A stretch of DNA of 64,000 nt from Owenia fusiformis (lineage: Eukaryota), in the NCBI GenBank assembly GCA_903813345.2, contig CAIIXF020000001.1, positions 19,716,001-19,780,000 on the forward strand, in the 5' to 3' direction. The notes under the pieces are model-generated. The model was not told where the DNA came from, searched no databases, and saw only the letters and a list, made by a program, of their open reading frames with translations. Below, piece after piece: positions 15,735 through 57,736 of this stretch. A program made the position numbers and the translations under genes. Within the stretch, counting starts at the first letter, position 1. Every line of letters starts with the position of its first letter.

Positions 15735-15807
15735 AGGTGTTTACTCAGTGACGATAACCTGTGAACCCTTGAGTATTATTCCGGGATCAAGCCTTTTATA
15801 CTAAATG
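15735..15807 (+). other. Candidate upstream exon of the 16458 gene, ending in ATG
   Basis: ...ggcag|AGGTG...CTAAATG|gtgagc. A phase-0 join to cag|ATGTCA at 16458 keeps the frame (MMSYV...). The acceptor of this exon is weak. Confidence 0.45.
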
Positions 15808-31700: not shown

Positions 31701-34700
31701 CTGTGTATATAAAACCATGTATGAGGCTACCTGATAAATGAACTTAAAATTTAATAAAATAACAAAATGATTAACTAAAGAATTTGACTGAATATTCTGC
31801 CTGCACCTCAGGCATGCTAAATAGTACTATATGCTGTTTTTATGTGAATACTAAAGGCTTGCCTGATTTAACTAACTAAAGTTGAAGTATCCAGTCTCCA
31901 TGTTACTTACCCTGTGTTCTCTTGCCAGGACACAGGCTTTGTATTGGTATTTCCATTGTCTTAAAGTCTTTGCCAAGTAGGTCACTTTCCTCTGTTCCTC
32001 AAAGTCCTCTCTCATCAGTCTCATATCTCTGCGCCATCTTACATACTCCAACCACTGATAAAAGGTGGCACTCACGGGCCAATTACACCATCTATTGATT
32101 GTGTAGATCATTATATTCTGTAATGCAATTGTACAGAAACTTTCAGTTTAAAATTTAATGCAGAACCTTAGAATAAGTCTAGATAGAGAAACGGAGAAGT
32201 CAACATTTTTAAAAGCATTTAAGGTAGTTAGCGTGATGAGAATTCTAATAAGCAATGAAATGATATTTCTGTGGATATTCGCAGATCATGGTAGGATAAA
32301 AAGAAAAAAAAACAATCGTTACAAAGCTTGAAAAGTTTCCATACCTTGACATTCTTGTTGTTGTTCTCTATGTTGATCAAGAAAGGATCCGAGAAACTAC
32401 TGCTGCCCAGTGACAGCTTCTCGGTCTCCAAACAGACCTTCTCCAGGGCATATGACCTTTCATAGCTTAGTCTACGGTCCAGGCTCTGTCGACAGCCCAA
32501 GGAAAGTGATCTGTAAACAAAAATATTATCACATAATTTCAACAGCATCACCATGTCATTGATGAACTTAATTTATTAACCAAATTAAAAGTGTTGTTGT
32601 TCCTAAATTAAAATATTCAATTCGACATTTACATTGCCGAATTATCAACAATGGCAATTTCATATGTATTCTGTTGAACTGATTATAGAAATAAAACAAA
32701 AAACATTAACTAAAAAAAGACTCAACAAAAATGTTCATACTTGTTTGAGTTAGTTGATCGAGGTGTGGAGAATACATTGCTATATGTGTCATTCTCTGCT
32801 GCGTAGTCACTGAGGGGGCTCAGTCTGTCAAGGGGGTAGAAATTGTGTTTGGTCAAGGAGCTAAAAGAACCATGGATCGGGGAGGGAGCATGCATACTGT
32901 CAATTCCACTACTGCCTCCGTTCGAGTGTTGGGCTAGGATACCTAAAACACAAAATATGTCATGCTTTATTAGGAATACATTCTGTACATATGACTAATA
33001 CCAATAACTTAATGTTAACCATATAGATCAGCCTGTAGTTCTATAACTTTTTAAGCAATTCGGGTAACTGTGGATACTTCCAAAATATCTTAACAAAACT
33101 ATAACAATGTACATTTATACCATTTTGTTTTTAAAGAAAAGATTGGCCTGTAAAGTTGGAAAATATTTAAATCATATCTACCATGACTCCCATTGCTGGA
33201 GAACCTTCTGTCAGTATTGCTCTGGAAGCCGTTACTATGGAAGCCACTACTACTGACACTTGTTATATGCGAAATCGATGATTCCTCACTGTTGGTAGGA
33301 GAAGAAGCAGATGGCGCTATGGTAGAGGCAGGGGAATACTGGGACTTTTCAATCTGTGTCACCAGTGTCATATGCGACCTGTCTGATAAATGGGAGTTCT
33401 CCGATGACTTAGATGGTGTGAGTTGAAGTGATGCATTGCACAAAGCTGAAGAGAATGTCTGAACTGAGTCACTGTACATGGCTCTTGTGTATTGGTGCCA
33501 CGATTGGATGATGTCTCTAAGCCTCCTGCTGGCAACAACCCGCTGGTGCTCACTGAAATCATAATACAGTCATATAATCAAATACAGTGTATACTGTAAT
33601 GTTAAATGTGAGGCTGCAATTTGTCTACTATGTATATGGATAGAAATGACAGTACTGGTTGTTTAAAAATGAAAGATTATTAGACTTATAGGTCCCATTA
33701 ACATTTTATTTCAAAACTGACCCCATAGTTGGCCATGTGTATTTGTCATGTGAACTTTGTCAAACTGTTGAAGGGAATGAACAAAACACTTACCTAGCTA
33801 TTCTAGAGCCAACAAGTTGTCGTTTCCAAGTTTCAAATGTTGAGTGCACAAGGTGCTCATTCTTAGCTCTATCAAGACGATCCAAGAATTCGCGGACTTC
33901 TACTTTCACTGTATTTGCATTTGCTCGCCACCTATTGAAGTACTTGTGCATCAAATTGAACCGATACGTCTGTAAGAACGAAAGTTTTTTTGTGTATGAC
34001 CTCACTACTCATATAAAAAGTTAATAAAGATTGAAAAATTTATTAACATGTATATCCTGTACATTAATAATACGTGATTAGTCATTATCAAAACCCAGTC
34101 AGTCTTACCTTTTTTGCTTCCAGTTCAAATTTCACCATTTCCTTGTATGCTAATCTATTGCGCCAGACAGAGAACGCCCTCTTGAGGACCAAAGATAAAC
34201 TATGAGCCTTGAAGTCCTCACACATATGCCTCCTTTCGACAACACTTTTCCATGCATAAAGACACCTAGTGGCACATCCTCGAACTATAGCTATTGCAAC
34301 TTTTCTTTCTTTTTGCTTCATTTGATACTTCTCTCTGGAAATAATCAATCAATTTGTTAAAATCTATTTCATTCTTCCTACTTCATAAGGCCATATTACA
34401 GAGGATTGGCATTCTAAGATACATGTATTTTACTGCATACTTAAATGTACATAAGGATGCAACATTCTCATTTTACTATCTGAATCGTTTCACATGTACA
34501 ATGCTAATGTGGTCAATGATTCTGTACTTTTATTCCCATGTAACTGTAAGAACACGGAGCTCAATAAGATGAGGGTTGTCCCCATGAATGACTTAGTTTA
34601 AAATATTGCATTAGAAATAGCTTGAAACTTTCTGAACAGCCTGTGTACCAGGTGCCATTCAGTGGTTGTTACCTCCAGATGAAGAAGATATTCCTGGTGG

Positions 34701-37700
34701 TTTGATTCTGATGTTCCTCAGCCAATTTCTGGAGTCTCTGCTTCCTTGTGTGCACCTCTCTCCAGGCATCAAACACCCTGGAATAACAGGGACCAAGCAC
34801 AATTAAAACATGATTACCATTCAAAAAATTGGTAATCTCAAAATAATGTAATTCTTATATGGTCAAAATCTTTAAAAAACAAAAACAAAAAGATTTCAAA
34901 ATTTTGCTTCTTGGAAAATGTGTGGGCTTCAACTATCTAATGGTTAAATGACTCTCAATGGCCTCATATCAGGGTCAATGAAAGTACAGTATTTCAGAAA
35001 AGATGTTCATTTTGAAGTACTTGTACACAATAAATATAGGCATGAAACAGCAGTTTATATTGATGAATTTACAGAGTTGATCTTAATTCAGACTAGCTTA
35101 CCTAGCAGTAAGTTTCCTATTGACCCTGGTTCTAATAGGTTTAATGGTAAGGGCCTGTTGGGTCTGAATCCTCCATTTCGTGAAGATGTTACGCATGGTT
35201 GTACATTGCATGCCACGTTCAGCATCAATGGCTCTCTGGTATTGTCTCTCACACTGGTGTTTCGCTGACAACCATTTACCAAAGTACACTGAAATCAATA
35301 AGTCATTTTCATTATTTTCCCAAGGTCTCATTCTGTCAATATTTTCAATTTTTCAATTTATGAGAAATTGCTTTATTTTGTGATACAGATTATTGAAAAA
35401 TTGTACTTTATGAATTCAGATGATTTTAATACTCTATCAAAATGAGTTCAACTCGAATCAGGGGCCATTTCAAATTTTTATCTGTGTTTTACTCTATATT
35501 TGAAATGTTTCATATAATCTCAGATTTCATTAGTTAAAATATAAGAGGTTGTGAATGTCTAATGTGGTTTAATACAGTAGGTGCAGGGTGTAGCAGCCAT
35601 TAAAAGACAGTTGATAATAAACAATTTTTTTGTTGGCCTACCTCTTAGTGTATTTGTATCTCTATGAGGCTGGGTGGAAACTAGCAAATCATTAAGTCTC
35701 CTTATATGGACAACAGTGTGCCATCGATGGGCAGCTTTCCTGGAAAATGATCATATAAATGATAAATGAAAACAAAAAAAGATGGTAATCCGAATATATA
35801 TTTGAATCTAATCACCCTCTCCAATTTATGGCATATTCTCATAATGCATACAGATGTATTATTCTAGTACATGTACAAACATATTTGATATTGTGCTTAC
35901 ACATTACTAATGTATTTTATGTACCATTACTGGCATGAACTGGTTTAGTCTATATTGCAAATAGATTACACTTTTGTACCTTGCACAAGCCATTGACCAA
36001 TATTGCTGGGCCTTCTGTCTGTCCATGAGGAGATGCAGGTGGCTCACCCATGTCGCCAGGGCAACAGATTTCTGCCTCTGTCTCATTTTAGCCTGAAATT
36101 CCTCCATCTTACATCTGGAGCAAATAATGTACCAATTAAGTTACATCCATCAAAAATCATTAACAAATAAGAAAAAATTGAAAAACATTCTGATCAAAGC
36201 ATTTAAACACAAGTCCAACAAGGGGATCTTGGGGCAAGGCAATTATTGTCATTATGACATTAATGCGTAGCAGTATATATTAGAACAGAACTCAACGAGC
36301 CAAAAGATGAGTCAGTAATATAAAACTACAAAAAAGTTACAACCTTTTTGTCAGTATTCAGAAAACATCATAATGCTACTCCCAGTTACTTTACCTTTGT
36401 ATGTTCCTAATTTTGGTATACTCAGACCATCTACGGAGAAGTCCTCTGATATGTGCTCGCTTTAAAAGACAAATCCCCCTTTCCCTGGCAGTTCTCCTGT
36501 CTTGCACGTAGTGGTTCCAAGTTGCTAATGCTCCCTGCTTCAGTCGCAAACAGAGCTGAGCTTCCTGACGTTGTCTTTGAATTGTATTGCGACGCCATCT
36601 TAAAACCCACATCTCCAATGCTTTCCTGTTAAACACGTTGCAAAATTGTACCCTGTATTATGTACATATTGTGGAAACATTTGAAAGGCATGACTCAATT
36701 GTGAATTTGGTTAGGTAGGTACTTTAATAAAAAATGTGAATATCTCTTATTTAGGATTATGAGGTTACAAGTAAGTTAAAGAATAATTTCTGTAATAATA
36801 CAAAACTTACGATAATGTTATGTGTTTGGCATGGTTTTCAGCCCGTTGCATTAGTAACCTATGTGACCATTGCACCCAGCATGACTGTAACAGCGCCTTC
36901 TTTCTAAACTCTATACTACGACTATGATCCCGTACTCTCTCAGCCTTACTGATCCAAACATTCTGTTTCCATGACAGCAACACTCTATGCAAAAGCTGAC
37001 ACCTAGGGAGGAAATCAGGATAATTTGTAGTGATATTTTTTGAGGAAGGGGGTGATGTTGTAGTGGCAAGGAAAGCAGGGTGTGATAATATATCAGGAAG
37101 GAAGGAATCGGCCTGTCTGGGATAATATGAACAACAATGGGCATCATGATTTAGGAACTCATATCTTTGTTTAATTAGTACTTTGGGTGATCTCTCCAAC
37201 ATTGAAACAACAATGGACTTTCAACAGAGCTTTACATATTATTAGTAAGTCTATGCTACAATGTTACAGTGTTCTAGAAAACATGTGCTATTCTACTTAT
37301 AATCCCATTACTTTGGCTCAATGGTGAGTCAATATTTTATATTATACATGTCCAGGGTGGTCCAAAAAATGGGACACTCTTTCTTTTCAAAAATATAACA
37401 AAATGTACAGCAGCTATAATATACAGATTAATATAGGCAAATCTACTCACCTGCAATGCTCTTTGGCTATTTGATGCTTTTCAAATACAGTTTTCATTTG
37501 GCAGAATGTTTTTGTGGTCAGGTTATTTATATAGTTGACTCTGAAATGGCATTAATGTATTCACTAATTCACTGTTTATAAAAATATATTTGTGTCTAGC
37601 TGATTTACAAAGCTTTTGAGTGGACAAAATGTTCACACGATTGATTGTAAGATAGAATATTTGAATAAAAAAATATTGTTACATGATAAGACATCTTAAG

Positions 37701-40700
37701 AACATGGTAGACATACATACCTGGCCACTTCTTTCTGTCGTTTGTGCACAATGGCTTGCATTGTGTACGCCCTCCAGGCCTGCCACCCCTTTGTCAACAT
37801 AGACACTCTGAAAGTGACGATTTGTAGATAACAAGTGTGACTATTGGCTTTTCATGTGCATCATACGTCAACTATAGTAGCAACTGAATTGAAATTAAAG
37901 ACATAATGAAATTTTCAAAATATTCCTATGATTCTTGTCTCTTACTTGTGATGCAGAGCAGCCATGCTGTATTTCTGTTGTGTTTTGTACAAGTCCTTCC
38001 ACTGACAGTACGCCCTGCTCAACACTAATTTGTTGGCTGCACCTTCAAGCAATCGTTCTCGCTGCATCGCTAACTTAAAGTGCTGCCACCTATCAAATGT
38101 TGACCTCAGGATAACTTGATGACGTTTCTCTGTTTTCTCCTTCCACTGTAAGCAAAATGGTTGTGAATTATCATTTAGAAATTCTATATGATATGATGTA
38201 AATATATATCATATGCAGAGTCGAGCCTTTAAATATCCATGAGGTGAGGTCTTTAGAAAATTTGACTTTACCTGGAATATAAACAACAAAATACACAATC
38301 TGACTTTTATGTAATTATATTAGTACTCACCATGTAAAAAAATTTCTCTTTTAGAACATGTTGTCTTTCTTGATCCAAACTCTCATACAATGCCTTTGTT
38401 TTCTGTACAGCCCACTTCAAGCCATCAAAGCCCTTCCTAAGGGCATTGAGCCTATAGAGGGCAAGGGCTTCGAGGACTCTAGTTCGCCTAGCCTTAGCCC
38501 TCCAGAGGTAGAAATAATGAGCAAGTAACTGCTGACGACGCACCTCCTTCGCCCTTGAATTAAAAAAAAAATCGTTAATAGTACTAATTAAGGAGAAAAT
38601 AATTTCTCTCTGTACAATGGCAGAATCCCAATTCTTTAATCTTCATGTTAAAAACCTTGAATTGTGAACACCTGCCAATCTGAACACTTTTGGCTTGTTT
38701 GGCTTTCATTTAGATAGTTTATACTATATACACATTGCTAGTCTATGAAGCATATTACACAAGGCAGCTTTACATCATTGTTTATAAATATGAAAAGTGA
38801 ATGTTCAGCCAAATTATAAACTTACATATTCTGCATGTGTTCATGGTGAAGTCTGTCTGTCCTTATGCATCTCACATTGGTAAGCCACCTCCTGAACCAG
38901 CGAGCCTGAAACACACAAACATTATTTGGCATGAAATTAAGAGCAGCGTAGGAAGAATGTCACCACCTGGACTCCATCCAAAAAAAGTTGGGAGGCTTAT
39001 AACAATATATTACCATTTGTGGTGGTGACATAACAAATGATTTCAGACACCATCAGTTATATCTTGGATTGTGAATATTTCTGACATTAGAGACAAGTGT
39101 ATCTTCTTTCGGTCCATCCATCATCTAAGAAAAGTATATGCAATATAAGAACTTCTCAAGCAGAACATATCCTGTATTGCACTTCAAATCATCTAATAAA
39201 GTTTTTATCGTGTGATCTTAGGCCGACACATTTTACTCAGGAGATAATCCCTGAGAATTATTCTGTATTCTCTGTATTGCTACTGAGATTGTCCCCGCCT
39301 CCGTACCAATATTTTCTGTATTGCTATGTAGATGATCAATGGGGACAATCTCAGTAGCACTAGATTGGTACAGCACAAGAACTGACCAATCAAAGGGCTT
39401 CATTATACAGATCATACGATAATGATAATTATTGTCTATCAGAATCTTTTGATATGGAGGCTATAATAATCAACCAAATGTACTTTTTCAAAAATGTTAA
39501 CAGATATGGGGCTACCGAGTATTTAAACTTGATACTGAAAGAGTATATCTAAGGGGAACCTATGGATATAAATAACTTCTGAAGCCCTATATATATATGA
39601 GTATAATTATTTTGAGACTAATTTCATCAAATGATAATATCAAGTCAATTTCCAACCCTTTACCCTGTAATACAAAATGTGAAACACTCATCACATCATA
39701 TTACCAAGTTGGCAGACTTGCCAATACAATAGGTAGATTATCTTTAAAGGCATCTAGTCTATTGAAGCATCAATCAATGTCAGAACACATATATATTACA
39801 CATGTTACAAGGTGCATTATTATTATACAATATACATATACAATATTACCATGCTGTTTTACAACAAAGGCATATAATATAATACAAATCCACTGCTCTT
39901 GTGGCCAAGCCAGGATATTCATTAGATTAGAACAAAGCCACTGTACTGGTCAATGTCAACTGTATGAGATTATCATATCAAATACAATGGTCACGAGGCA
40001 TTCAAATTGGGCCATGTATAAATCTAGGCACACGCATTGACCTCAAATCAACAAACAAGAGTTCCCAAAATTGAAATTTATTAATTGTGTGTCATATATC
40101 ATTATTTACTTAATTTAATAAGGTAAAATGGAAGAAAGGATTTTCAAAATTTTCAACAATAGGGGAATCTAATTAAGTCTTCCTGAATAGGAATTTCAGT
40201 TAACAATGGCAAAGAAAATGTTGGCAAAACAAGGTCTGAACTTTGTATGAAAACAATTTTTATAAGGGGATATTCCCTAAGTCCATAAGTTCATAAAAAT
40301 TACATTTTTATTTGAAGTCTAAAATATCAATTCAACAATTAATGCACACGGTTTATACATTGGTGACAAAGGTATAAAAAGGCATATCTGCAGTGTAGTT
40401 ATAATACATTGAATACCAGTATGTGTATTGCAATATTGTGTGTATTCTGATTTATGAGAATGCTTGAGAGGGATAACACAAGCTGTTCTCCATGAGATTT
40501 CAATCCCTCTAAAGAGGCTAAGGATCCCACAATGTATCATGTGTTATCCAATCTAAAAAGTAATGCCTTGGTCACATTTGCTCCGATTTTCACTACGGCG
40601 CCAGGCCGATTGAGTATTTTGAGCAAATATTGAGCAAAACACTCAATCTTCCGGGCGCCGGCCGATGGATCGGAGCAAATGTGACCCAGGCATTATGCAG

Positions 40701-43700
40701 GTTGGAAACAGTAGAGTTCCCCAGGTAAAATTCTAAGGATTAAGAATACAGAATTCCTGTCATTACCTTATGAAAGTTCAGAATTCCACCATTACATTTT
40801 ATTACTGTGACATTGTTATATCCATGGTTATAATAATTAATAATTAAAAAATCTATGGAAAAATCATAATTTTAAAAGTATTGAGTAATTGATTTACATG
40901 TAACCCTGTATTTACAGGGAGTGCATATTATCTTATCAGAAGAGGTTTTTATTTTTATCTATCTATCTATTGGCTTCAACAAAACCTTTCTGCACTACTG
41001 TTCTATACTAGAAACGTGTGGAAATTATTCTATAATTTACTGTTATGAACATCATGAAGAGACATCTGTGACATGATAATTACAATAGTTGTGAAGCAAA
41101 TAGTTCCATGAAATTACTAAATTATTAGATGCTTCACCCTGACAGACAATGCATCATTAGGGTGTTACAAAGTATTATTCGGGTGTTACAATGTATTATT
41201 AGGGTGTCGTCTTTACGGATCTGGGATCTTTAGGACAAAGTCATTTAGAAGAAACAAAATAATACTAGATTATTTAACCTGATTTAATGGGAGTGTGATT
41301 AAAACCAATCAGATTTATACGTTTGTAAATTCATTTGGTGGATGATAAAAATTTGTGAAAACAACATTTTCTGTATTTCTCAAGCATCTTTGAATAACAT
41401 GTGTTGTCTAATTAAGCCATAATTAATCATTTGATTGGCACTCAAATATGAATGTTAGTGACCCTATTCCAGGACCATAATCAGCATTGCTGCTGAAGCA
41501 GTGAACACCTGTTATATTTTCTAAGAAACATTTCAAGCCTACGCTCACTCGTGCAGATATCATATCCATTTGTGGATAAAAATCATATCACTCATAAATC
41601 ATAGGATATCCTCTATTTATTTCATAAGAATTTAACACATATTCATACATTATATCTATACCTAATTTATAGTGACACTTTGGGTGACAGATCCTTTTTA
41701 AGTTGAAAAACATTGTTCATGGAGATAATGAGTTCACTGCATCTAAAATAAGAGTATACCACTTGTTCTATTGCTTTGATATTTTCAGAAAATGTCTTCA
41801 AGTCTATTGATAGTATAAGCTACATATCATTATGAATTAAAAATATTTCAGGTTATTATAAGGAAGAGGATTACAGCTACTGACCCTTTAAGATGATTAC
41901 ATTCCAGAATGAAACTTGGCTACATTCTCACAACAGGCTAATCCTGACTTTCAGAGGATGAATAAATCGCATTATTTGCTTGATTATTTCTATAAAAATA
42001 GTTATGTTCCCAAATTTAAGAATTACGATGATGTAAAAACATTAAGCTAAATGCTAAACTTTGAACACAAAATGCCAAGTTTGAATACAAAAGGTGAGCT
42101 GACATGTGTAATGAGTTGGCAAGGTTTCTAATTTGACTGTACTATTATTGTTATAATTGGATTATGCCTTATATTTATTTTAGGGTTTGAATCTCATTAA
42201 AATATGAACCTCAAGGTCGAATTTTCATTTTCACATTTGCAGTTCATCTTTTAAGTTACCTCTATGAGTAGATTTCCAGTTTTACGCAAATGCATACTCA
42301 CACACTCATATGAGTAATTGATAATATACTCAACTTGAGTAAATATTCACTCACCTTGAGTATGATATTCTGTCTTGTGAGTGGGTCAGCATTGTGTAGG
42401 AGCTCAATTAGTCTCATGGCCCACAAAGCTGAGGACATTTTCTCCATACCAGGGCTTCTCCTGAAGTAAAAATAATTAAGGTTTTATGAAAGCCTTAGCC
42501 ATTATGCCATCTTCGTTCACTCGGCTCCCATCTGTGAACGCAGTCGATGAACGCAGTGAAGACAGAACGTGCGAAGATGCCATTATGCAGGGTGACCCAA
42601 AAAATTTGACTTCCAGTATACTTGATTGAATAACTTTATTATGCAAGATAGAGTCTCCTTTTCCTTATTTGTCAAAAGTTAGTTCAATTAATGTATAAAC
42701 ACTTTCTAGAATTCTACATAAATGTGGAAGAGTAGGAGACTCTAGCATGGATAAAAGTTTTATATTTGTATATGGTGTATTCCTTGTCAGCCTATTGAGC
42801 ACTTTCACTTACAAGTGTTTTTCTCATTCTTTGTTCAATTTCACAGATATCAGGGAGGGTAAGTTACGTGTTTTTAAGATAACCTGTACGTGAGTGTGTA
42901 ATATTTTAACGACCAAGGATGACTGCCACGCTCTCAATTCACTTTTCTAGGGACCTAATTAGAATTATTTTCCATATACCTCAATCAGCCAAGAAAACAT
43001 TACAAATGGGAGAACCAATCCACAGAGTACCATAATTCTACATGTCCATGTTTAAGTTTTTAAAAAAATGTGTGTCTCAACCTCCCTAATAGCTCAATTG
43101 CTGCAAATGGTTCATGTTATCCACAAACAGGGTGCATTTCAATCATTCCAAATCAATAAGATTAAGAAACTAGTTAAGAGTGTACAGTCTGGAAGTAAAT
43201 GTACAATACATAACCACTGATTATCTTTCCAAATTCCTGAATCGTAATATTTTCTTGTAGAATAGTTAACATTTCATTTTCTTTTGACAAACATTGGGTG
43301 GGAGCCAAATAACAAATGGCTTTTTATTTTAAGTATCAAAATGGCTGGGATTCAATAGTCTCCAACCCTCCAGGTCAACTGAACATAAATATTGACCGAA
43401 GTGTACAATTCAATCAATTGGTTGATACTGTTGTAAAGGGAGTGTTGTCTGGTGTTTTTCAAGAGGAATGTGTAAGTACAAGCGCCAAAATGGAAGACCA
43501 AAGAGTAACAAGGCATGCAACATGCCAAAATGTCACATTTGTTACAAATATCGAACACCAACTGCTGAATGCCAAACACTGTGCACAAAAAGTTGGAAAC
43601 ACCACTTCTGGTAGTGAGATAATAAATACACCAAAATATGGTTTCAAAAATAAACAGTTAACAGTCAATGTCTAACGACCCCTCCTCACCATATAAAAGG

Positions 43701-46700
43701 TGGAAATTAGAGAAAAGGACCATCGTATTTTCTCACTATATGTGCATTTACTTACTTGTATTTTGATTCCAGGTAGTTATCATCTCTACTGGGAATATCA
43801 TCATACTTCTTGTGATATCTTTGTGGGCTCTGAAATAGTGGAAAAATAATTTTAAGATGTGGTCTCAAAGTTTATTTTTTTTATTCATTTATTTCATCCA
43901 CCATATTTGATGTGTTCAAATAAAAATTTCACATTGCAGAATTTCAAAATACATTGTACATTGTATGTTATATCAGTATAAGCATATTGCAATTTCAGAT
44001 ATTATTCTGAAATATATCAATACATGCAAATATACAAATAGGCATACACTCTAATTTTCCAGAAAAAATAAAATTTCTTTAAAAAAGTACTCATATATAA
44101 TATACTATAAATCTATTGTTTATCAGCAAAATATCTCTATGATAAAACAAATTGAATTTTTTTCAAAAAAAATTTCATTTCAGATTGTATATAACCTAGG
44201 GATAAACCAAATATCACATCATTTCTTGTGATATTTGATATCAACTCATTGGATATTCTGCATTTACAAATCTTGCTCTCACTTTTTGAGATGCATAGCA
44301 CAAAACACACATAGCTTCCTATTTCTTTTCATTAGCAATATGACAATACACTTGTGGTGATGTCTATCAATCAACATATTATTTGATGTAAGCCTATACC
44401 AGTTGGATAAAGCATGTTTGGATTACTGATGGGGTTTAGATATCAAATATCATTAGTTTAAACTTACCATAAAAATAACAAAAAACACTAAAAATCAGTT
44501 AGATTTGTGTTTATTTTGATTGATTTTCTGAATCAAATGTAACTTGAATTTAAATATGAAACTTTGAAACCTGAACTCTCTGAAATTTAAACAAAAAGTG
44601 GAAGAAATTCGGTACTCAAGGATAACAGGTTTTTTTTGATGAAGATCATATTTTCTTTCTTAAAGATGCATGGCTATAAATACACATACTCTCACCAGGG
44701 TATTTTTGAAGAGTTTTCTGTTATTTTTAGCATAACATTTAACATTTTTTATTTTCATGGAATTTTTGAAACTTTAAGGAGCATTGAATTATTGGAAGCC
44801 ACAGATATCTCTCTTTATTGGGAACCCTGATATATTTTATGACTGACATGAACAATCAATGATCATTATTACCAAGGTCAGCATCTAATAGACTATTAAT
44901 GGATATAAACAGATAACATTAACAGATACGGAATGATATATAAGTCAGAAATTAATAATTTGTACAAATCTTCACGAGACTAGATCTAAATTAAAGCCGT
45001 AGCAACACTAACGTCACAATACCTTTAATTAGGCTTCTTATCCAGTGCATGCAGGATCTTTCATTTGACAAGACATTAATTAAATGTAATATTAGGATAC
45101 AAGATGAGATGTTGTGAGTACAAATCATGTACAATGTATAAATATAGAGGATTGTTATCTCTTAAGTCTGAACCAGGACCTCTATTAAAATCCCCACCCC
45201 CAAGTTTTAATTTCCAAGAGACTGGCATCTTAGAAGGAAGCTTGGACAAGATCCTCTCAATATTTTCTCAATTATCATTTTCTAACATGTATGCAGTTCT
45301 AGATAGAGTATATCCATGTACATGTAGTTTGAAATCAAATACAATGAGATACCAAAAACATGGTCATCTTAAATCCAATAAATATGGCAAGATTTATGCA
45401 AAACTACAATACAGAGTGTGTATATTTGTTTCATGGTAAAATATAAAAATCAAGTGGGTTATTTTGTATTCTTCTAAAAAAAATCAAATGTGATGGTTGG
45501 TCATTTATATGGTATTAAATTCCTTTAACTTAAGGTAGGTGAACCTTTAAATTACACAAGATGTTTTAACTTAGTATTTACCTTATGCATTAGTTTTTAG
45601 TTTGACTTCCCCTCTTAAAAGAGAGCTTCGTCTGTACTCAGGGTATGTAACCATACACGTTAAAGTTCTGATTTAGTCATTAATCTTTTAGTACTTCTTT
45701 GAGATATTTTGGAGTAGAGTACATTAACTAGAATTGGTCGGAATTTATATCTGAGCAAATATTTGAGCATAAGATTTATTCAAAAGACTGCATATAATTC
45801 TTAAACGATAAGAGCAGACTTATGCAATTAACCATTAAATATTATTATTTAATATGGCATTATCAAAAATTCACTTGAAAAATCAAGGACATTTAAAGCT
45901 TTAGATTGGAACACTCCTTACGTAAAGTGTTTTGATTTAGAATTGCGAACTACTCTTTAGACACAATGGATTTTAATTGAATCATTTAGCCTGGATTATT
46001 ATTTTATTATTGTTCAAGATTAAGTAAGAAGTTGCAAAGAGTAGGGTTACCTCACAACTCTGAATGTTTTACTATGAACATCAGATTTGGAAGTCAAAAT
46101 CACCTCATTTCAGCACCACTGATTTAAAAATTCAAACTTTCCAATGGTATTTTATAAAAATGATGTAGTATAGCTGTGTTTTCTTAGAACTGAAGCAATT
46201 TCCTGAATTCCTGAATGTCTGTTCTTTCTGCTTCATGAGGGAATACACGTAATACTATTCCAAACATATAAAATACAATGTCAATAACGCTTGGCCCCAC
46301 AAAGCAGAATCAATTGAAACTTTTTTGAAAAGAGCAACAATGAAAATAAATGTTCAACTTGAACTTCTAAAAATAGCAAATAATTCATTTTTGAATGAAT
46401 CAGTAAAATGGTATTGTTATTTTTGTCTTGAAGACAAGAACACTGCACAAGAGGAATGCAAGAATAGTAATTGGTAGACCTTGGTAGACAAATTGGTATT
46501 TTCTTAACAACAGTCTATGGTACCTAGATATTTGTAGTGTCTGTCAAGTAATCCAATAATACATAGTTCACCTCTTAAGCAAATACAGGTCTGACAATCG
46601 AAAACAAATGTATAAACATAAATCTAAGATCAAGAAATAAGTCAAACTGGTTTTAAGTTTGTGCTATCTGTAATATGGAAGCTGTTCCCTATATTAGCAG

Positions 46701-48522
46701 TAGGTAATAGGCAGCAATTTGACAAAGGTTTTTACAAAACTTGGGAGGATGAGACCTAAATATGTTTGTATTTTGATGAACTAATGGTGATCAGGCCCAT
46801 AGGCAGAGGGGCCGGAGTTCATCCAAAAATTCGTACAAAATCATACAGTTTTCACTATTCCGAGCACCTTTCAAGTAATTTTGGGCCAAAACTGTCAAAT
46901 GTAACCCCCCTGAAATATTTTGAAAAGTGAACACACCTTGAGAGAAGCTGTCTATGGGCCTGGTTATAAAATCTGAAGATATATAAAGGCTAGATGAAGG
47001 AAATGTCTTACTGTGAAATGGTTTGAAGAGTTTGAATCATCAAGTTGTATTGTATAAGAGTCCTCCATATTGGCCTTGATAGACTGGATGGTGAAGAGGC
47101 TGTTGTCAAGGTCAAGTTGACCCACCATCTGGTCAATGGAGTGAGACTGTGTACGTGTGAAGTTGGGAGAGTATGTTCTAGGGCCTACAGGTGAGCTAGC
47201 CATGTAATGCTCTGAGGAGTGTGCCCTAGTTCTTCGGGAAACCCGTCTCCCAGAATACATTCCAAGATACTTTTTCCCAGTGGGTGACAAAGGTTCATAA
47301 GCCTCAGTTTCATCATGTGATACTTTAATATGGGATTGCAGTTCAAGTGATCTATTGAGCAATGAATCCAAATCATCATCTTCACTGTCACTACTTGTGT
47401 ATGGGTAACTATTAGGTGCTGGGTAAAGATCATGGGTGGCAGGGTTTCCACTCACCGAATCATATTTAGTTGCAGCTGTTAGTGGATAAACTCCTGTAGA
47501 TGTTGCTGGATATGTCCCTACAGCTGTTACAGGATTTCCTTTTACTAAAGAGGTTCCTGATTTGAGCGTTTGATCATAGTTCTGTTTGGGTTCATTGTAT
47601 TGTATTTCTGCGAGTCTCATTCTAGAATTACTTTGCTTGTCCATATTCCCTGATTTAAAAGGTGTCCTCCCCATAGATTTTGCACCAATGTCAAGGTCAT
47701 ATGACCTGAGTGTGCTTGAGCTGAGTTGTCTAATGGGTGAGGTCTGAGCATTCTTTGATGTCTTGCATATATCTGGGCTTGTCTGACACCCAGTTGATTC
47801 CTTTAAATCATCAACGCTCATAATTTGTGGCACCTGATTTGAATTATCCATATTTGGCATGTATGCAGTTCTAGACTGAGTATATTCATAAGTTTGTAAA
47901 GGTAGGGACTGAGCAAGTCTATGTTCATTTAGATGTGATGTATGAAGACTCTGATCATTGTATGTGGTCAAAGAGTGATCACCATCGCCATTTTGGCTTG
48001 TGTGATTCTGACGTGACGTGTAATGAGAACCTAAAGTCTTTGTGCTTGTTTTACTTTTGTTACAATCTGTTAGCTGCTTGTCTAGTTCCAAGAGCTGACT
48101 GTCAATTTCCTGCAGTCTTATCCGATGCTTACTCAGCTCTAACGATGAGTTATTTGAGTCTGTTGAGTATACCCCCGAATTGTTTACATCATTGCATGAG
48201 GGTGCTATTTGAGTATTATAACTATTATATGAACTGTTTCCCATTTGGGAATTTGGCATTTTTTCGAAGTATCCATTTCCAGAATTCAATGTACTAGTCC
48301 TCTGATTTCCATAAAAATTATCTCCAAATGATGATCCATGTAACAAATACGAATCATCTTTCTGTTGATTTAAATATCTTACTGTCCCTGAGGACATGTC
48401 ATTGGCTGATGCGTAATCCCAAGACATGGTTTCTAATACTGGAGTTTCAGCTTTGCTCCTCTTATATACACCTAATTGGTTACCATGGTAACTTGATTGT
48501 CGCTGAATCTGGTTTTCATCAT
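25797..48522 (-). CDS. SFI1: Large Sfi1-repeat (centrin-binding-type) protein, ~2390 aa, at least 33 exons; 5'-most exon uncertain
   Basis: GT-AG exons on the - strand with matching phases: 47012-48522, 43756-43829, 42355-42460, 38826-38905, 38331-38553, 37946-38145, 37721-37807, 37451-37540, 36811-37002, 36395-36652, 35980-36114, 35642-35739, 35102-35288, 34673-34777, 34109-34334, 33794-33969, 33182-33552, 32741-32942, 32345-32510, 31911-32117, 31238-31381, 30670-30818, 30183-30327, 29606-29723, 29282-29426, 28845-29106, 28419-28657, 28162-28252, 27666-27879, 27356-27500, 26738-27115, 26315-26450, 25797-26108 (7172 nt). Dozens of A-x7-LL-x3-F/L-x2-W[KR] helical repeats (LLAHYFYLWR, LISKYFITWR, VLARMFNAWC, LRKRIFQAWS). 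The symbol is family-level; this could be another Sfi1-repeat protein (C1orf167/CCDC191-like). Confidence 0.88.
29902..30034. mobile_element. Degenerate TA-flanked MITE
   Basis: TA-CAATAAAACCTG...TGTTCCACTTGACAGATTTTACTA-TA; resembles the 4295 and 20182 family. Confidence 0.5.
30481..30656. repeat. Degenerate ~18-20 bp minisatellite (CCCCAAGTCAACT core)
   Basis: About 9 imperfect units (caaatcaact, aagtcaactt, aagtcaactg, aagtcaacta, aagtcaacgg) in an Sfi1-like intron, next to a splice donor. Confidence 0.65.
39150..39422. mobile_element. Hairpin-containing interspersed repeat, copy 1
   Basis: Internal inverted repeat TGCTACTGAGATTGTCCCC...GGGGACAATCTCAGTAGCA; reverse-complement homolog at about 53598-53880. 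Confidence 0.7.
40561..40695. mobile_element. Palindromic MITE (Harbinger-like TAA/TTA ends)
   Basis: TAATGCCTTGGTCACATTTGCTCCGAT...ATCGGAGCAAATGTGACCCAGGCATTA; a related end fragment lies near 57330-57352. Confidence 0.7.
42508..42579. mobile_element. 72-bp micro-MITE with 9-bp TSD
   Basis: TIR CATCTTCG/CGAAGATG, flanked by CCATTATGC at 42499-42507 and 42580-42588. Confidence 0.7.
46792..46962. mobile_element. CAGGCCC-ended MITE
   Basis: CAGGCCCATAG...CTATGGGCCTG, imperfect 5-bp flanks GTGAT/GTTAT. The interior is related in reverse to 59929-60127. Confidence 0.6.
48479..48492. promoter_or_regulatory. Perfect RFX X-box palindrome
   Basis: GTTACCATGGTAAC, about 30 nt inside the first large coding exon of the Sfi1-like gene. 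Confidence 0.4.
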
Positions 48523-50369
48523 CTGAAAATACATCACCACAAATTAAAGCATGTATTACTATCATATGTAATATGACTTTTTCTGATATAGATAATGGAA
48601 TATCCGAATCAATTTCTACACGATTAATTGGCAAACCTTGTCATGCAAATATCAACCATTAAAACTATAGTTGATGATTTCGATACTACACAATTATCTA
48701 TAATGTACATTTGCATCTCGATTTATATCTATGAGCATCTGATTCTACAAATATCGACAGATCATATTTGCATTATGAACAAAAATGACATGTTCTATTA
48801 TAAAGTTGATTGATATGAAAAAATTTAATGCATCATTTAACACAAACAGAAAAATTCATACAGGTACTTTATATTCCTGTTTTAATATTTCTATAACAAT
48901 GACTAATATAAGACATTTTTTTAGTTAAATCTCTTGATGATATCACCTTGCAAAAATACAGTATCTTAAAATTGTTGCAAATAAATCTCTATTATAGCAG
49001 ACATATGCTAAACTAAACATGCCCATCTTCATGTAGTTTGTCTTTATACAGAAAACAAGTAACAAGTACTGCATTTGATTTATGAAACCAATTTGCCTCC
49101 AAAGCCAACAAGATATGACTCATCTCATTTTTGTAATTATCTCAGGTAAACTCAGGTGTACTCGGGAGTAAATGACAAAATATATTAGTCTCATCAGCTT
49201 ATAGGCATACACCAGGTTAAGGCAGTGTATTAAAAGAAAATTAGATTTTTGCAAGTGACAGAAACATTGCGATAATACTATGATGCGCATCATCTGTTGC
49301 TGATAACAAAATTGTGCTGCATGCTATATCAATACTGAATAATTTCTAGATGCTGGGACCTTATTACATGCAAGTCTTATGAACCACTACAGTATAGTGC
49401 ACAGAATTCTTAACTTTATTTATGAACCATGCACTAAACCGTAAGATTATCAAACTTTAAGCAAATCTATACACTAAACCAAACAAACATTCTGGTTTAT
49501 CAGACTTCTCCTGCTTGCTCTGGTTCAAGACAAAGGGGGCACAGGTATCACAATACCAACCCAAGGCAATGATACAGTCTGGTGCTCAGTGCCAATTAAA
49601 TAACATTTAAAGAATGGTATCCCCTGCAGATATGCATAAGACTGAACAACAAAAATGGAAATGGTGAATATTGTATATGTCAATGTGTAAGTGTATTGGG
49701 CATGCAACAATATATAATGTGCCTGATTCTACCACACCTGAGCGCTGCAGAGAAACGCTGCATTTCCAAGAATTCAATTTTGCTTCTTTAAAAGAGAGTT
49801 TCATCTGCCTCTAATTACTAAGACTCAGTGTAAAGGGACTCTAACATGAAAGCAAAGGCTAATTATTAATATGAGAAGTCACATAGAGCAGAAGCCTGCT
49901 ATCATTTCCTTCACAGCAATAGACAGCAAATTACAGCTACAGGTGCTTCATTAAGAAATAATAAGACCCAATTGGAAAGAGAGCTAGTAAGAGTGAAATT
50001 AATAATCAGCTTGAACCTGAGTCCCATTAGTGTCATGATATCTTCTTTGCTTAAAGTGGATCTGCATAATGAGAAATTAAATGAAATTGTCATGGTTATA
50101 ATCAACAATAATTGATTAAATCAAAAAAGGTATTTTTTTACGTTATTATGTAGAGATTCAAATATTGTGTCGAAAAAAAAGAGTAAAAATCAAAATAGTT
50201 CAGTATTGATTGATAATTGCATTCTCCAAATCTTTTGTGTAAGTAAAAATCTCTGATTACACATCTCCCAGGAAATATATTAATATCTATTACCCAGGGT
50301 TCCTGTACCTGCATGTAACTCATTTAGAATGTTGACTACAAATGCGTCTGTTTAAAGGTGAAAAAAATA

Positions 50370-50547
50370 CAGGAAACCTGTCTTAGTGAACACCTCTCTC
50401 TAGAGAACACCTGTCTCTATAGAGGACACCCTTCCTCCACACATATTCTCTTGACTTCTGTATAAATGACCCTCTCTGTAGTGAACACCTACCAATGATG
50501 AATGGTTTTTCTTGGCAAAAAATGTTCAATATACACAGGTTTTACTG
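50370..50547. mobile_element. TA-flanked MITE (GTGAACAC family)
   Basis: TA-CAGGAAACCTGTCTTAGTGAACACC...ACAGGTTTTACTG-TA. Confidence 0.7.
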
Positions 50548-53473
50548 TAGTTCATGATCTTTACCACATTAAATTTGCATTGACAGAGTCACTTTCATAA
50601 ATCTTACTTTTGCATTCAACTGGCGTTGCTTCATAAAAGAGAACTTCATCTGCAGTTAGTTAGTTACAAGACTCTGTACTCATGGTAAAAAATAGGTTAT
50701 TTCATGTGGTTTGCATCATTTACGAATCATAGTTCTAGCCAATTTTTTCAATTACACCATTGCATCATTCACAAGTGCTTATTATATGCTATGTTATTAG
50801 TTTTGTTCTCTCTGCATAGAATATACTTACATGTCCAAAATATCACTATTTCTCCTTTCTTCTCATAAATTGTTAATAATCTTCACATTCTGTTTTACAT
50901 CTAATGCAGGGCAATGCTCTAAGGTGGTGTGAGATGATCGTTAGAATTTTAAACTTCAGAATTATCATTTGAATTAATCCCAAATATTGATTCTTTAAAT
51001 CTAAAATAAACATACAATACAACTAAAGGTATCTAAAAGTTGATAAAACAACAACAGAAGCTTAATATCCAACAACACAACAAACAATCTCAAATTCAAT
51101 TTTAAATCCCTATCTTTGAATTTTTCATTACTTATCTCCAAGCCTACATGTGTTATCTTTGCTTTAGTCATTAAGTCCCATGATTCAAGATTCTCCAAGC
51201 ATATGATTTTGCTTCTTAAAAGAGAGCTTCATCTGATATCTAACTTAATTTACAAAGCTCTGACACTTACAGGGTAAGAGAAAGAACATGTATGAATGTA
51301 TTGAATCAGTCTGTTCATCCTGGAACTCACCAACTACTGTGTCTAACTTCTCATCATCCAACTCCTATCATTTTATAATTATTATTTCTTGGCCACAATC
51401 TCACTTAAATACATTTTGTACAATGTTTCAAAATTGCTTAAATAAATTTTCATGACCAAAGTAAGTTTACAATCCATTTTTATATTAATCCTCTTTCTTC
51501 TTGGTATATGACTAAATAAAAAAATTCAAAGAAAGTTTATGTATTCCAGAAGCATCGTAATAGGCCTTTAGAATTTAAAAAATCTTTGCAAATGAGATGT
51601 CGTATATTTAGTTCTGATTGTATATATTCATAAATCCAGTTTTACTTTCTTTGTGTCTTGGAATCTATCAATGTTACTTAAAACCAATCATTGAATCTAC
51701 CAATTCTACTACTAATTCTCCTCATCTCTGATCTCAACTTTCCTGTATATCCATAAATAGCGACTGGGAGAAAATCCTATTAATGCAATGCATAGTAGAG
51801 TACACAATACACAAATACAGTGCTAAGTATTACAATAGATCTTTGAAGTCAAGATCTCCTGTTCAATCCCAGAAACTCGACCTTGTATGCCTTAAACATT
51901 ATGTTTTGAGAGTAGCCCTGAGACCAAGGGGCTAGAAGTAAAATACTACACTCTGGAAATTTGTAGAATGGAATAATTGTTTTGATATGATCTTGATTAT
52001 GATTATGACCTCGGCAAGAAACTTTAATGGGGGTTTGTGACACCCATTCTATTAGGCTTCTGATTGGAAGTGGTGAATATTTATTGCTGTTATAATATGG
52101 AAAAATGATAATGTCCCTTTCTATTGAAAATTAACAAGCAGATTTTTACAAGAGGAGTCTGAAAATTTAAAAGAAAACTCAAAGGGAGGAGGAGTGTGTG
52201 ACCTGAAAATAAATCAATCCATAATGGATCATGTAGGTTTTAGTTGATCTGTGTCCATTCTAAGCAAATTTATTTTTGAATGCCAGAGTTTAATGCAAAT
52301 TGAATTTTCCGATTACAATTCCTCTTTACCTACGGGATCCTATTTGTTCAACAGTAGGGTTGTAATAATACAAAGTGTAGTAAGAAAATGGCACTTTACA
52401 TTACTACTTGTTTTCTTTGGCTGCCGCTATCAAAAGTCGAGATTTATTACATTATAGATCACTTTGAAGAATTGTTTACTAAAGGAAGTCATACAAATGA
52501 CATACACCGTACCAGACAATAGCTCAATGGATTTATACAGTAAAAGGTAAAATAGAAATAAAACAAGTTATAAAAAGTCTATAGGGCAATACAAAATATC
52601 AGAGCTTGTGACCCAAAACTAGATCTTGAAATCAGCTGTGAAGAATTTTTCTATTTTCTATTTTTGATATTGCGGGTACCAATCTCTCCAAAAATACATC
52701 TACCACAAGTGTATATTTAAGAAATGATCATCTTCACATGATACATACAACCAAAATCTAATAAAGCATGCTGTTTCTTGAATTAAAGGTATTGGTAAAA
52801 TATAAATCTGTCGTGTCCAAGTAATAAAATGTATCCATACTCTAGAAATCTTAGCAACATCAAATAATAGGTCAAGTAGATGCCTAACTGTAGTAGCAAA
52901 ATACTCCAAACGATATGATGAATAGAAAAAACGGTTAGTTCTTTTTTGTTTGTGGTTTTGAAGTGGTCTGAACTTTTAATCCAGGATAAAAAGCAATTGG
53001 TTGTTAACTGAAAGAAGAAAAGACTTCAAATTGTCAAGTTGCAATGAGTTACAACCTTTCTCTGATATCTGGATATTGATATAATAGTAAAACCTTGTTA
53101 TATGTCAATGCACGAAAACAATTGAATAAAATAAAAAATAGTTCTTAATTCTATTAAATGTCAATTGTCAAATTTCTTTATTAGTTTTGAATCAAATTTC
53201 ATACTAAAAGTAAATATTTCATGTTATGTTTATTGTTACAAGTCTGGTGTTCTAAAACTTTGAAAATATCTCAAGGTTTTTCACCCCGAGGAACCATGGC
53301 CTTGGCCTTTGTAAAGCATAACCTATATGGATACCCATGGGCATTCACCCATGGGATATCTAATGACTTTACTGTGGCCTTGACGTTTGTAAATCATAAT
53401 CTAAAAGGATATCTTGTAAAGACCTATACCTATAGAAATGATGGATATCTGATCCATGTATACCTCTACTTAC

Positions 53474-53501
53474 CCTTTACTTCTTTAAAAGAGAGGTCCA
53501 T
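53474..53501 (-). CDS. Candidate 5' coding exon of the Sfi1-like gene (MDLSFKEVK, phase 1)
   Basis: tag|ATGGACCTCTCTTTTAAAGAAGTAAAGG|gtaagt. The donor is consensus and its phase 1 matches the phase-1 acceptor at 48522 (G+AT=Asp, giving ...EVKDDENQ). Confidence 0.45.
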
Positions 53502-53597
53502 CTAACTTTTATACTAGGCTCTGACATTTAGCATATTCTTTGAACAATAGTAATTATAAAATCAGTAGTAACAGATTAGCATTCCAGTATTCTGATT

Positions 53598-53880
53598 TAT
53601 CGTATGATATGTACTATGAAGCCTTCTGATTGGTCAGTTCTTGTGCTGTACCAATCTGTATTGCTACTGAGATTGTCCCCGTTGATCATCTCCGTCGCAG
53701 TACAGAAAAATATTGGTACGGAGGGGACAATCTCAGTAGCAATACAGAGGATCACACGATAAAAACATTATTAAATGATTTGAAGTGCAATACAGGGTAT
53801 ATTCTGCTCTCGATATTCTGTATTGACACTCGACTTCGTCTCGTTCCAATACGGAATTTCTCGAGCAGAATATATCCTTC
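53598..53880. mobile_element. Hairpin-containing interspersed repeat, copy 2 (inverted relative to copy 1)
   Basis: TGATTGGTCAGTTCTTGTGCTGTACCAATCT and the TGCTACTGAGATTGTCCCC hairpin match 39270-39420 in reverse. Also carries a CACTCGACTTCGTCTCGT mini-hairpin. Confidence 0.7.
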
Positions 53881-55727
53881 AAATCATTCAATAACTTATA
53901 ACACTACTGACTTTATATAACACAAATGTTTATAAATTATAGAATATCATTTTGGTGTGCTATAACAATAAGAAAACATAGTTATTTATAATTCGTTAAT
54001 GAAGCTCTATTATTAAAGGACAAGTTAACAAAATGTAATGATTTCAAGCTCAGCTATTTTTATCCCAGGATGGCCCTCTTTTATACAACAAAATTATTAT
54101 ATGTCTTGTCAGATGGTATAATTTTGGAGCATATTACTTGTCAATTACGCAACTGGACATCTCTCAATTTTGAATATTTTTTTAGTTTATGGAAAATAAC
54201 TCCAAAGTAACCTAAATATGACAAGTTACAAATATATCATTTGGCAAAAGCTCTCTGAAGTACTGTACTGTACAAGGTATACCTGTTTGGTCAAACAAAG
54301 AAATTGGTTGAAGAGCTCTATCCATGGCGACTAATTGGTACAAGGGCCAGAACATGTTTCTTAGTATTGTCATTAATAAGAACAAAGAATACATTCACTT
54401 AAAATACCATGGTTGATAGGCTTAAGTATAAGCGCTAACTGTCATTTTCTTAGTATCATTTGATTGGTTAGTTTTAATGACACTTCTCTTTTGTGAAATG
54501 GATGGTTCCGATTGTATAAAATGTAGAGTATTTAAGGAATTGATGATTTAATTTGGGTTTAATAAATTATTAATACATATATGTTATATATTTTTCTAAT
54601 TTATTCATCTTCATGTCACCATCACCACAATTGACTTCTGTAATAAATGGCAGATGGTAACATTTTGCATGTTAATGACTTGTTTATACTTTATTCTACA
54701 CTTAAAACATGGAAACTATCAATCACCAGTCCAACTAGTGTTATTATTGACTAAACGTTTAGAATATTTTCCACTTGAGTCTTTGATATATTTTCCCATG
54801 ACGTTGAACAGGTTATAGATTTATATCATCAATTCAGCACACATAGCATGTTATATAGTGATAATTATCTGTTTAACTGATCAATTAACATTGACTTATT
54901 GGTAAAAATATAGATTTACATTCTATATATATCAGTTATCTCAGATTTATTTCAAACATTTGTAATCCATCTTATCATTCTGATCAACCTCATATTGATT
55001 TATCCATATATGAAATCTAGAAAATGAACTCATAAAATGTACATGTACTAACCCTTTCCATTCTAGGGGCATCACTGAATGTTCCAAATGATAAAGATGT
55101 GTGAAAATAAGATGACTAAAACACAAGGTATCAAAGTGAGGAACATCAGACTGAATTAATCTGAGATCTTCTAAAGTATTGTACAGCAGTCACATTGCCA
55201 CATCCTCCAAACATCATTCTGATACTCATCACATCTTTCTGGCTTCAGAAGCTAATAGAAGGCTATGATTTCTCATGATGTCCGATTACAGGGCTTTAGA
55301 AATCATCTACTATGTTCCTTCTTTCTTCCCTGGTTAGGAGGATGCCATCACCTTCTCATACTATTACAAATGAAGTTATGTATTTCTCCTGCCACACTCG
55401 TGGAGGTTTAAAACAAAAGGAACTTTCCAATCTGATATGAATGATATACCCAATTTTTTAAACTTCCCCCAAAATTCAGAATTGAAAATGGTGAAGACAT
55501 TGTCATTTGGTATACAGTCTGCAGCCAAAGTCACGATCAAACCAAGCAAATTTGAGCCATTTTTGAAACTGTTCATTTAACACATTAATTTGAACTTTCT
55601 TTTTCCTACCATTAGTAGGCTCTTATACCCAGGGAGGGATTATCACACATGGATGAAGAGGACAATATCAATTATGTAAATGGGCATGTAATGAATGATT
55701 ATAAGTGAGCAATTATTAATTGCTTAA

Positions 55728-56020
55728 CCTCTTGAATACCCAGAGTGACGGATATATCCGTCACAAATGAAATAAGACTGGTGCCCAGAGGGACGAGAAA
55801 ATCTGTCACAAAATTTTTCACAAAAATTGCTCTCATTTGAACAATTTTCATCCAATTTACACAAAAATTGTTTTAAAACGTGTAGAAATGATCTCTGTCG
55901 TCCAAATTTACTAAGCTGAGCATCTAAAGTCGTATAGGTATGTAATAAAATGTCAAAAGGTGGCAAAAAATGAAAAATTCTCTGGTTTCATGCCAATTTT
56001 AGAGCCTGGGATTCAAGAGG
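55728..56020. mobile_element. piggyBac-like MITE
   Basis: TTAA-CCTCTTGAAT...ATTCAAGAGG-TTAA (CC..GG ends, TTAA TSD). Confidence 0.75.
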
Positions 56021-57736
56021 TTAATCAAACAATCATAACCTGATAATTAATTAAAGATGAAACTTGAAGAAGTTGATATGATGATGAATAGATGGGTTTG
56101 TATTTCTTTTGTTTTTGTCAATTTTAAACTAACAAATACCGATTTCAATTGTAAAATAAAATCAAATGAGAATTCTCATGATTATAGTAACCAATTATTA
56201 ATGAAGTAGATAATATCTTATACATTCTGTATCTTCATGCAATGTTTTGTACAACTGTTTTTGAAAAAGTATGCCACCACCTTAACTCCTAGACCACATC
56301 TGGAACCACATCCTAGCACTTGCCAAAACCACCCATAACAAAACAGACATTTGGAAGAAGAAAAAACTGACAGTGCTAAAGATAATTCTCAAACTTTTTA
56401 GTTACCTTCAGAGAGAGATGATGCATTGAGAATTGTTGTATTGTTCATCAATGGCGACCTGCTCTGCTTCGGTTTATCTTGGATGAATTGAGGAATATTT
56501 TGTTGTTGCTGTTGTCGGGAACATCCTGTGTGTTTATCCTTTGATCTCTGAAATTCATACAAGTTCCAAATAAGCATACAGTAAAATAAACATCAACGTT
56601 TATCATTATACCATTTAATAGGTTCACATGGTAAAAAGCCCACTTCTCCAAGATGAGGCAAAAGTAGGAGCCGGGATCAATGGTGTCAATTACAAGCATG
56701 GATCTGCAATCCTGCTTAAAATGGACACAAAGTTTGGTTAAGTTGAAAGAATTTCATTCAAAGATTTTTCACAGACAGATGACCCAAAGGAAGGATGGAT
56801 GAACAGATGAACATATAGGCATTAGATGTGTCTAAAGGCTCACCATCTAAACCAAAAATCTTGAAGAAATGAAGGGCCTGCCAAAAGTACATTCAGAACA
56901 CTCAGAAACAACTGGTCAATAAAACATTCAATATGTAAACAAACTATTTACTGATACGAATCTATTATGATTGATTTGCTCCTTATAAGCACATGTGGCT
57001 TCATTACAACAACAACGTCTCCTATCCTCGAAAATTTCCTTGTAAAATTGGAAACAATATCAGACCTTTTTAGGTATGATAACAAGTTGTTCTTTCCTAG
57101 CATTGCACAAGGTTCCACTCTGAAACTAATCACATCTTTCTTGTCTTGGACCATCATTGACTTGAAACTTGACTTGAGAAGGAATGCCTCAGTCATGTTT
57201 GATCTAAGGCAACCACATGCTGGCTGTAGTTTCACAAAATCGAGAGAAATATGCAGCATATGAAATAGGGATAAGCACAAGTACATGATGGAGATTTTGT
57301 GAAGCTACAGCCACCATACGCCCGCCGTAGAGCAAATGTGACTGAGGCATAACTAAAAATTAAGAGAAGGCTGTGATATCTCACGATGACTGCTTAGTGT
57401 TTATACAAACTTCACCAAATGTATACAAACCCTATCTCAATGAATTGGTGACAGCTACTTATTTACTGATGGATGATAGGAGTAGACAGAGCATTGAACT
57501 TGTGACTTTCAATTGACAAATCCACAAGAAGAAATTGATAACACTATTAATATACACACACTCATGCTTAATGTCAATATAACGCTACTACTGAGAATTG
57601 ATTCTAGACAAGCTATTGTGACTGCTTACATAACTTTATGATAATTCTTACAAGTTAATTTCGCTTACTGTAGATTTGAAATTGTATTTCTATGCAATGG
57701 CTTTAATATAGATTTCTAGGTAGATAATTATAGGAT

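Follow-up and report, generated by a model that had tools for sequence, protein, structure and literature searches.

Intronic transposed elements (Alu and others) bring pre-formed splice signals with them, from which a few point changes lead to species-specific exons that are mostly minor or decay-triggering, according to the part of that work considered here (PMC3176834). In mammalian oocytes solo long terminal repeats (LTRs) of the MaLR/ERVL type (MT, ORR1, MT2, MLT) act as platforms for promoters and 5′ exons, as the sections used of Franke et al. 2017 (PMC5538554) describe. In addition, minimal type I hammerhead motifs are found in Penelope-like elements and non-LTR retrozymes with many copies per genome (PMC7229834, in part). 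Here we describe five minus-strand copies (A to E) of a core of ~30 nucleotides (nt) in a 64,000 nt stretch of the Owenia fusiformis genome (assembly GCA_903813345.2, contig CAIIXF020000001.1, forward strand positions 19,716,001 to 19,780,000), which is called the window and is counted from its first letter. The copies lie within 45582–53504 in the first two introns of a gene for an Sfi1-repeat protein, and they look like little exons. The reading that we favour, with modest confidence, is that they are locally multiplied relics of a dispersed repeat with cryptic exon signals. A preliminary description of the same letters had proposed duplicated promoter/first-exon modules giving the gene alternative N-termini, with the start codon in the loop of a stem. 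The features concerned are the following; donor and acceptor scores come from a matrix built from the 33 real introns of the host gene.

25797..56448, minus strand: host gene of the Sfi1-repeat protein P0001 (2395 amino acids (aa), 34 coding exons), placed by mapping the protein onto the window
56406..56547, minus strand: annotated upstream coding exon of both deposited isoforms, with a phase-1 donor leading to 48522; RNA ~2.1–2.9x
47012..48522, minus strand: large exon of 1511 nt, the proposed splice target (acceptor side 48522, phase 1); RNA ~1.8–2.6x on its 5′ part
53474..53504, minus strand: copy E, core and donor after 53474, with a 28-nt piece from ATG to donor (53501–53474), phase 1 and in frame with 48522; donor 10.1 bits, acceptor −7.1 bits (very poor)
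51204..51235, minus strand: copy D, core and acceptor-like AG, no strong donor downstream (best 4.2 bits), stops in both relevant frames; acceptor 6.3 bits
50608..50652, minus strand: copy C, candidate for a frame-keeping cassette of 42 nt (50649–50608), the only copy without the phase-1 TAA; acceptor 4.2 bits, donor 8.7 bits
49738..49807, minus strand: copy B, core and donor after 49738, with a 67-nt piece from ATG to donor (49804–49738), phase 1 and in frame with 48522; donor 8.5 bits, acceptor −5.3 bits (poor)
45582..45634, minus strand: copy A, with ACG, closest to the abundant genomic repeat, donor after 45582; donor 9.7 bits, acceptor 2.2 bits

As far as the parts of these papers considered here go, the copies resemble exonized intronic elements in being intronic repeats with ready splice signals; unlike those, they belong to an unnamed class, the matching piece measures only 30–55 nt, and no spliced product was seen among the 15 of 254 joints listed. 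The likeness to the MaLR/ERVL LTRs lies in a repeat which may carry an AUG and a donor and in several alternative first exons for one gene, and these LTRs would be the working model if a copy had indeed been exonized. However, they span several hundred bases, include promoter, start site and poly(A) site, and are proven by RNA, none of which is shown for the Owenia copies; moreover they possess no acceptor, whereas D, C and A have an acceptor-like AG. An LTR-derived 5′-exon platform of the MaLR type was rejected on account of these AGs and of a shared sequence shorter than ~100 nt. The likeness to type I hammerheads (a CAGAYGA box, a short hairpin and an A-rich box) is superficial: U4 is absent in all five copies, GAAA likewise, and no Rfam hammerhead was matched, the consensus (CUGANGA and GAAA) being the one we take as typical. 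The copies are dispersed over 8 kb and not arranged head to tail, nor do they derive from junctions of the host gene itself (the closest match with one of its real junctions has E = 16).

On the minus strand the AG of the core lies at 53503 (E), 51234 (D), 50651 (C), 49806 (B) and 45633 (A), and all five copies read YAG followed by AYG. All ten pairs of the 30-nt core outscore every random pair (up to 3000). A 19-letter pattern gave five matches at up to three mismatches, 0.04 being expected, a surprise that is overstated as the pattern was derived from the copies themselves; elsewhere in the 64 kb it was found on neither strand, and a profile search of the window yielded no sixth copy better than E 1.7.

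The dispersed nature of the core is most directly seen at copy A. Three raw RNA runs (X10, X11 and X12; 6–12 in 100 of the reads of each) and one contig set were compared with 43650–63649. Over the 34 nt at 45600–45633 the reads stop matching at both ends (491/484 in X10, 414/421 in X11 and 367/344 in X12) and continue in all three runs into the same foreign flanks, with an agreement of 0.67–0.83 which points to diverged loci. The bin of copy A is covered on both strands (12.8 and 18.8 in X10), in contrast to the exons of the host gene, which are covered on one strand only; as the bin mean expected from ~490 reads, each matching over 34 nt, is near 25 and thus above either strand alone, both orientations of the repeat are present. 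In the contig set the depth is 12531 in this bin versus ~10–30 in unique bins, a value which is itself not a copy number; a rough range is 600–19000 close copies. This set behaves like DNA, spanning introns and crossing the boundary at 48522. Contigs of this set also link one core with another (45632 to 51205, 14 letters between) and the core with a second short module (55239 to 51214, 13 letters between). Thus many copies elsewhere, in both orientations and with shared flanks, are directly seen for A, D-like text occurs in the two contig joints, and B, C and E belong to the repeat only through their likeness to A and D. The second module is listed here.

55215..55240, minus strand: second short repeat module, on the same strand also at 57116–57141 and 62577–62602; contig link to the core elsewhere in the genome

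This module, which is also present at 1009–1039 on the plus strand, has TGATGA-like text, and reads from other loci join it to 62606–62615 onward. It is probably part of the same composite repeat as the core.

Copy A was regarded as decayed in the preliminary description, yet of the five it is nearest to the abundant family, in which ACG is one of the states. The ATG of the other four most likely arose from ACG by methyl-CpG decay; CpG observed/expected in the gene body is 0.33. Intronic repeats go with higher methylation in O. fusiformis (PMC11292947, in part) and repeats make up 43% of the Owenia assembly, as given in the part used of the genome paper (PMC9977687). The five copies may be a local lineage or subfamily, since their upstream arm differs from the family flank in the reads. 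A 7-nt inverted arm in four copies is the sole feature seen that is reminiscent of an element end. The core motif had no match in metagenome and viral contigs. One family flank had none elsewhere in the window, and the other had one inverted match with three mismatches (49848–49865), equalled in 14 of 100 shuffles. A literature search by motif text returned unrelated matches only and no paper on this element, supplements lying outside the search; a name for the family may already be given in the repeat annotation files that accompany the genome paper.

The gene in which the copies reside has an annotated start of its own. The large exon matches one protein, a record of 2395 aa from O. fusiformis with PF08457. 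Its start is the ATG at 56448 inside the exon 56547–56406, and the second of the two members of its protein cluster, P0002, carries 34 further residues in front and reads through the same exon from an ATG further 5′. Neither of these two annotated proteins, the deposited isoforms, includes any copy; E, D, C and B sit in the annotated first intron (56405–48523, 7.9 kb) and A in the next. For P0002 an upstream exon ending in ATG is required, and seven ATG/GT candidates exist in the window, the best donors being 58695 (7.7 bits) and 56844 (7.6 bits). The Owenia annotation was built from RNA-seq and ab initio models, according to the same part of the genome paper (PMC9977687). A single exon of the host gene reaches E 0.00046 and 19.3 bits against PF08457, under the cut-off of 22 bits; the precomputed annotation of the whole protein includes the domain, and UniRef names it, so that membership in the Sfi1-repeat proteins holds. 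By its sequence the host probably encodes a centrin-binding protein of the centriole type, and is a probable centriole or cilium gene. The 500-residue N-terminal extension rich in Ser, Thr and Asn (47012–48522) has no relative at the sequence level; long low-complexity N-termini before Sfi1 repeats are also present in hemichordate homologues. Within the large exon, 30 nt from its edge, lies a perfect palindrome, GTTACCATGGTAAC (48479–48492), which we take to be an X-box (RFX site); it could mark an internal promoter or enhancer.

In the three runs the exon 56547–56406 is covered 2.3/2.1/2.9x and the large exon, in its 5′ part, 2.2/2.6/1.8x, if every sense read of a bin is assigned to its exon. 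With equal depth the observed transcripts can be explained by the upstream exon. The use of this exon by both isoforms, at the RNA level of the large exon, speaks against first-exon modules of the gene itself. Junctions were called from three reads at an exon depth of ~2x; among the 15 joints listed of 254 none starts from any copy and none lies at 48522, the normal 56406–48522 junction included, and no pile-ups of read starts were found at this depth.

The copies, frames and donors had been placed correctly in the preliminary description, and every statement on frames checked out. Translation confirms that E and B, both phase 1, run in frame into the exon at 48522. Copy C fits as a symmetric phase-1 cassette between the annotated upstream exon and 48522, the frame of D stops after MKLSFKKQNHMLGES, and none of the three frames is open in the 50-nt piece of A, which starts with ACG. 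If they are read as internal cassettes behind the upstream exon, E, D and B each meet a stop after five codons, which leaves C as the only open one. On paper a functional donor in frame with the shared exon thus exists for E and B, and for none of D, C and A as first exons.

What is conserved in the copies is DNA. The third positions of CTC TCT TTT (codons 3–5) are invariant, codons 1, 2, 3 and 6 change the residue, and three of the five copies leave the frame after codon 6 through a 1-nt indel; the constraint or recent common origin is at the level of DNA and not of the peptide. The suggested N-terminus MxLSFKE finds no counterpart, since MxLSFK-like text occurs in none of the eight proteins (P0001–P0008) and no N-terminal peptide is kept among copies or homologues, the six homologues besides P0001 and P0002 (two named hemichordates, one named tunicate and three others, two of those fragments) being too distant for a strong test of conservation. 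In some pairs the similarity continues for ~45 nt on the upstream side of the core (4 of 10 at p <0.05; E–D p 0.0007, D–C p 0.004). No pair of ten is similar at p <0.05 at 51–100 nt upstream or at 31–80 nt downstream, and none of 20 pairs in the 300-nt flanks. These limits are compatible with local duplication of a unit shorter than ~100 nt, which is too short for a duplicated promoter, and the proposed duplication of promoters finds no support in them. The 250 nt before B, C and D contain 0–1 CpG, and neither B nor C is preceded by a TATA-like word.

Nor is the proposed stem supported as a structure. It is a 4-pair AGAG/CTCT match; none of 30 folds around the start codon reached z < −1, the consensus gave −0.76 kcal/mol with no compensatory change in nine pairs, and the core pairs with the upstream sequence with a probability of 0.00–0.28. 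MicroRNA-like or SECIS-like hairpins at the copies were rejected for lack of a significant fold, and the Sm site failed the test or equalled chance. Both boxes of an H/ACA small nucleolar RNA (two hairpins, H box and ACA box by the consensus we assume) occur in two of the five copies, versus 45% at random places, and the folds are not significant. Rfam gave no match at gathering score in the 64 kb, and none of the 11 weak matches within 45000–57500 (E up to 10) lies over a core.

Four of the five copies have a strong donor 28–67 nt downstream, within the top 0.2–0.8% of 1202 intronic GTs. Since 1.4% of intronic positions have such a donor 20–75 nt downstream, four in five would have a probability of ~2e-7 if independent, a figure that does not apply as such because the family site is inherited. 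Even so, the strong donors are not due to chance. Those of A, C and E share a GCAAAG-GTAA context and thus a homologous place, where the family flank in the reads has AGG/GTAATA with 5.1 bits; because the family already has this donor-like site, the three are one inherited site and not three events. Of the duplicated modules, a relation of the copies by descent is upheld, with ~45 nt shared in some pairs and donors far above chance; that they are promoter/first-exon modules of the gene itself is not supported, the core belonging to a dispersed repeat which already carries a donor-like site.

According to the favoured reading, a many-copy dispersed repeat of Owenia would have left decayed pieces in the first two introns of the Sfi1-repeat gene, where local multiplication would have given rise to the five copies. 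The repeat would supply an AG-AYG start and a donor-like site ~50 nt later, so that its relics resemble little exons; the normal mRNA would run from 56547–56406 to 48522 and skip the copies, which would at most be cryptic or noise-level exons. Several observations weigh against this reading. The local donors are all stronger than the site in the read consensus, and the only three donors of at least 8.4 bits in the first intron are those of E, C and B. The donor of B occupies a position other than the homologous one (for two copies, a single donor of this kind would arise by chance with a probability of 0.03), so that inheritance explains neither the excess of the A, C and E donors over the consensus nor the strong donor of B elsewhere (p ~0.03). 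The acceptors are split, D, C and A scoring positive and B and E negative. It is the in-frame copies E and B whose acceptors are bad, a state compatible with first exons, and the stop is gone in C, which keeps the frame. With five copies on one strand within 8 kb and no other in the remaining 56 kb, a local duplication would have to be assumed, and the family is known from reads and contig joints with its class unnamed. Finally, the bin of copy D (50987–51653, 667 nt) shows unexplained sense RNA in all three runs, its mean depth being like that of exons, with sense 2.06/1.55/2.74 versus antisense 0.11/0.10/0.04. It is either a real transcribed stretch, possibly an unannotated exon, or is due to some 35–60 reads that stem from an expressed locus elsewhere whose core resembles that of D. 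A donor after 51331 is present in this stretch, as are acceptor-like sites at 51511, 51319, 51232 and 51000; a GTAAGT immediately 5′ of D reaches only 4.4 bits.

The patterns of donor strength, acceptors and the frame of C allow for partial exonization, which we consider possible though unlikely: the repeat origin would be the same, and at least one copy would serve as an exon under regulation, be it E or B as a first exon of minor use restricted to certain tissues (sperm or ciliated cells, for instance), C as a cassette of 14 residues that keeps the frame, or D as a poison or terminal exon. Besides the donors exceeding the family site, the unique openness of C and the sense RNA at D, it is favoured by E and B being two of the only three of 436 intronic ATGs that reach a phase-1 donor of the strength of B before a stop. 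However, the common inheritance of the A, C and E donors, the scarcity of CpG before B, C and D, the lack of TATA before B and C and the deposited isoforms speak against it, the D signal may stem from a single expressed locus elsewhere, the bin of B (0.19/0.09/0) stays within the 0–0.9 of neighbouring intron bins, and no protein fragment starting at a copy was found among 37 candidates of 110–350 aa. In the bins of C and E other repeats drown the signal. Quite doubtful is the further idea of a portable repeat module of start codon plus donor, multiplied locally into tissue-regulated alternative first, cassette and poison exons of a centrin-binding gene, with single-base changes setting the role of each. 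It is a little less probable still that the core is kept as a non-coding signal, an array of DNA-binding sites or a small RNA motif, with an incidental exon look; the core is better kept than the shared 45 nt upstream, constraint is at the DNA level, all five copies have the same orientation and the core is met with in several contexts, but the Rfam, folding (either strand), hammerhead, H/ACA and Sm results oppose it, and its lead over the flanks is partly selection, the core having been chosen as the best-kept part. The full original model of gene-specific promoter/first-exon modules with a conserved MxLSFKE N-terminus and a stem-gated start has E and B splicing in frame on paper with strong donors in its favour; it is largely refuted and very improbable in view of the dispersed core, the expressed upstream exon, the missing promoter-length similarity, the frame lost past codon 6 and the weak pairing of the core.

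Several further inverted-repeat elements with very high contig depth (53655–53878, 55712–56036, 57184–57350, 57724–58143, 59962–60083 with 46823–46932, and 40561–40695) are ordinary miniature transposons. In the element at 55712–56036 TTAA adjoins the arms, and we take it to be piggyBac-like. On the plus strand the window also contains a sugar transporter exon (PF00083, E 1e-12) at 4648–5040 and an open frame of 511 aa without Pfam match at 16437–17972.

If the copies are only relics, they represent an ordinary repeat which mimics exons and a warning for gene annotation. If at least one of them is spliced, the locus would be a clean case of repeat exonization in an invertebrate, at five stages in one gene, comparable to the LTR first exons of mammalian oocytes and testable with existing RNA data.

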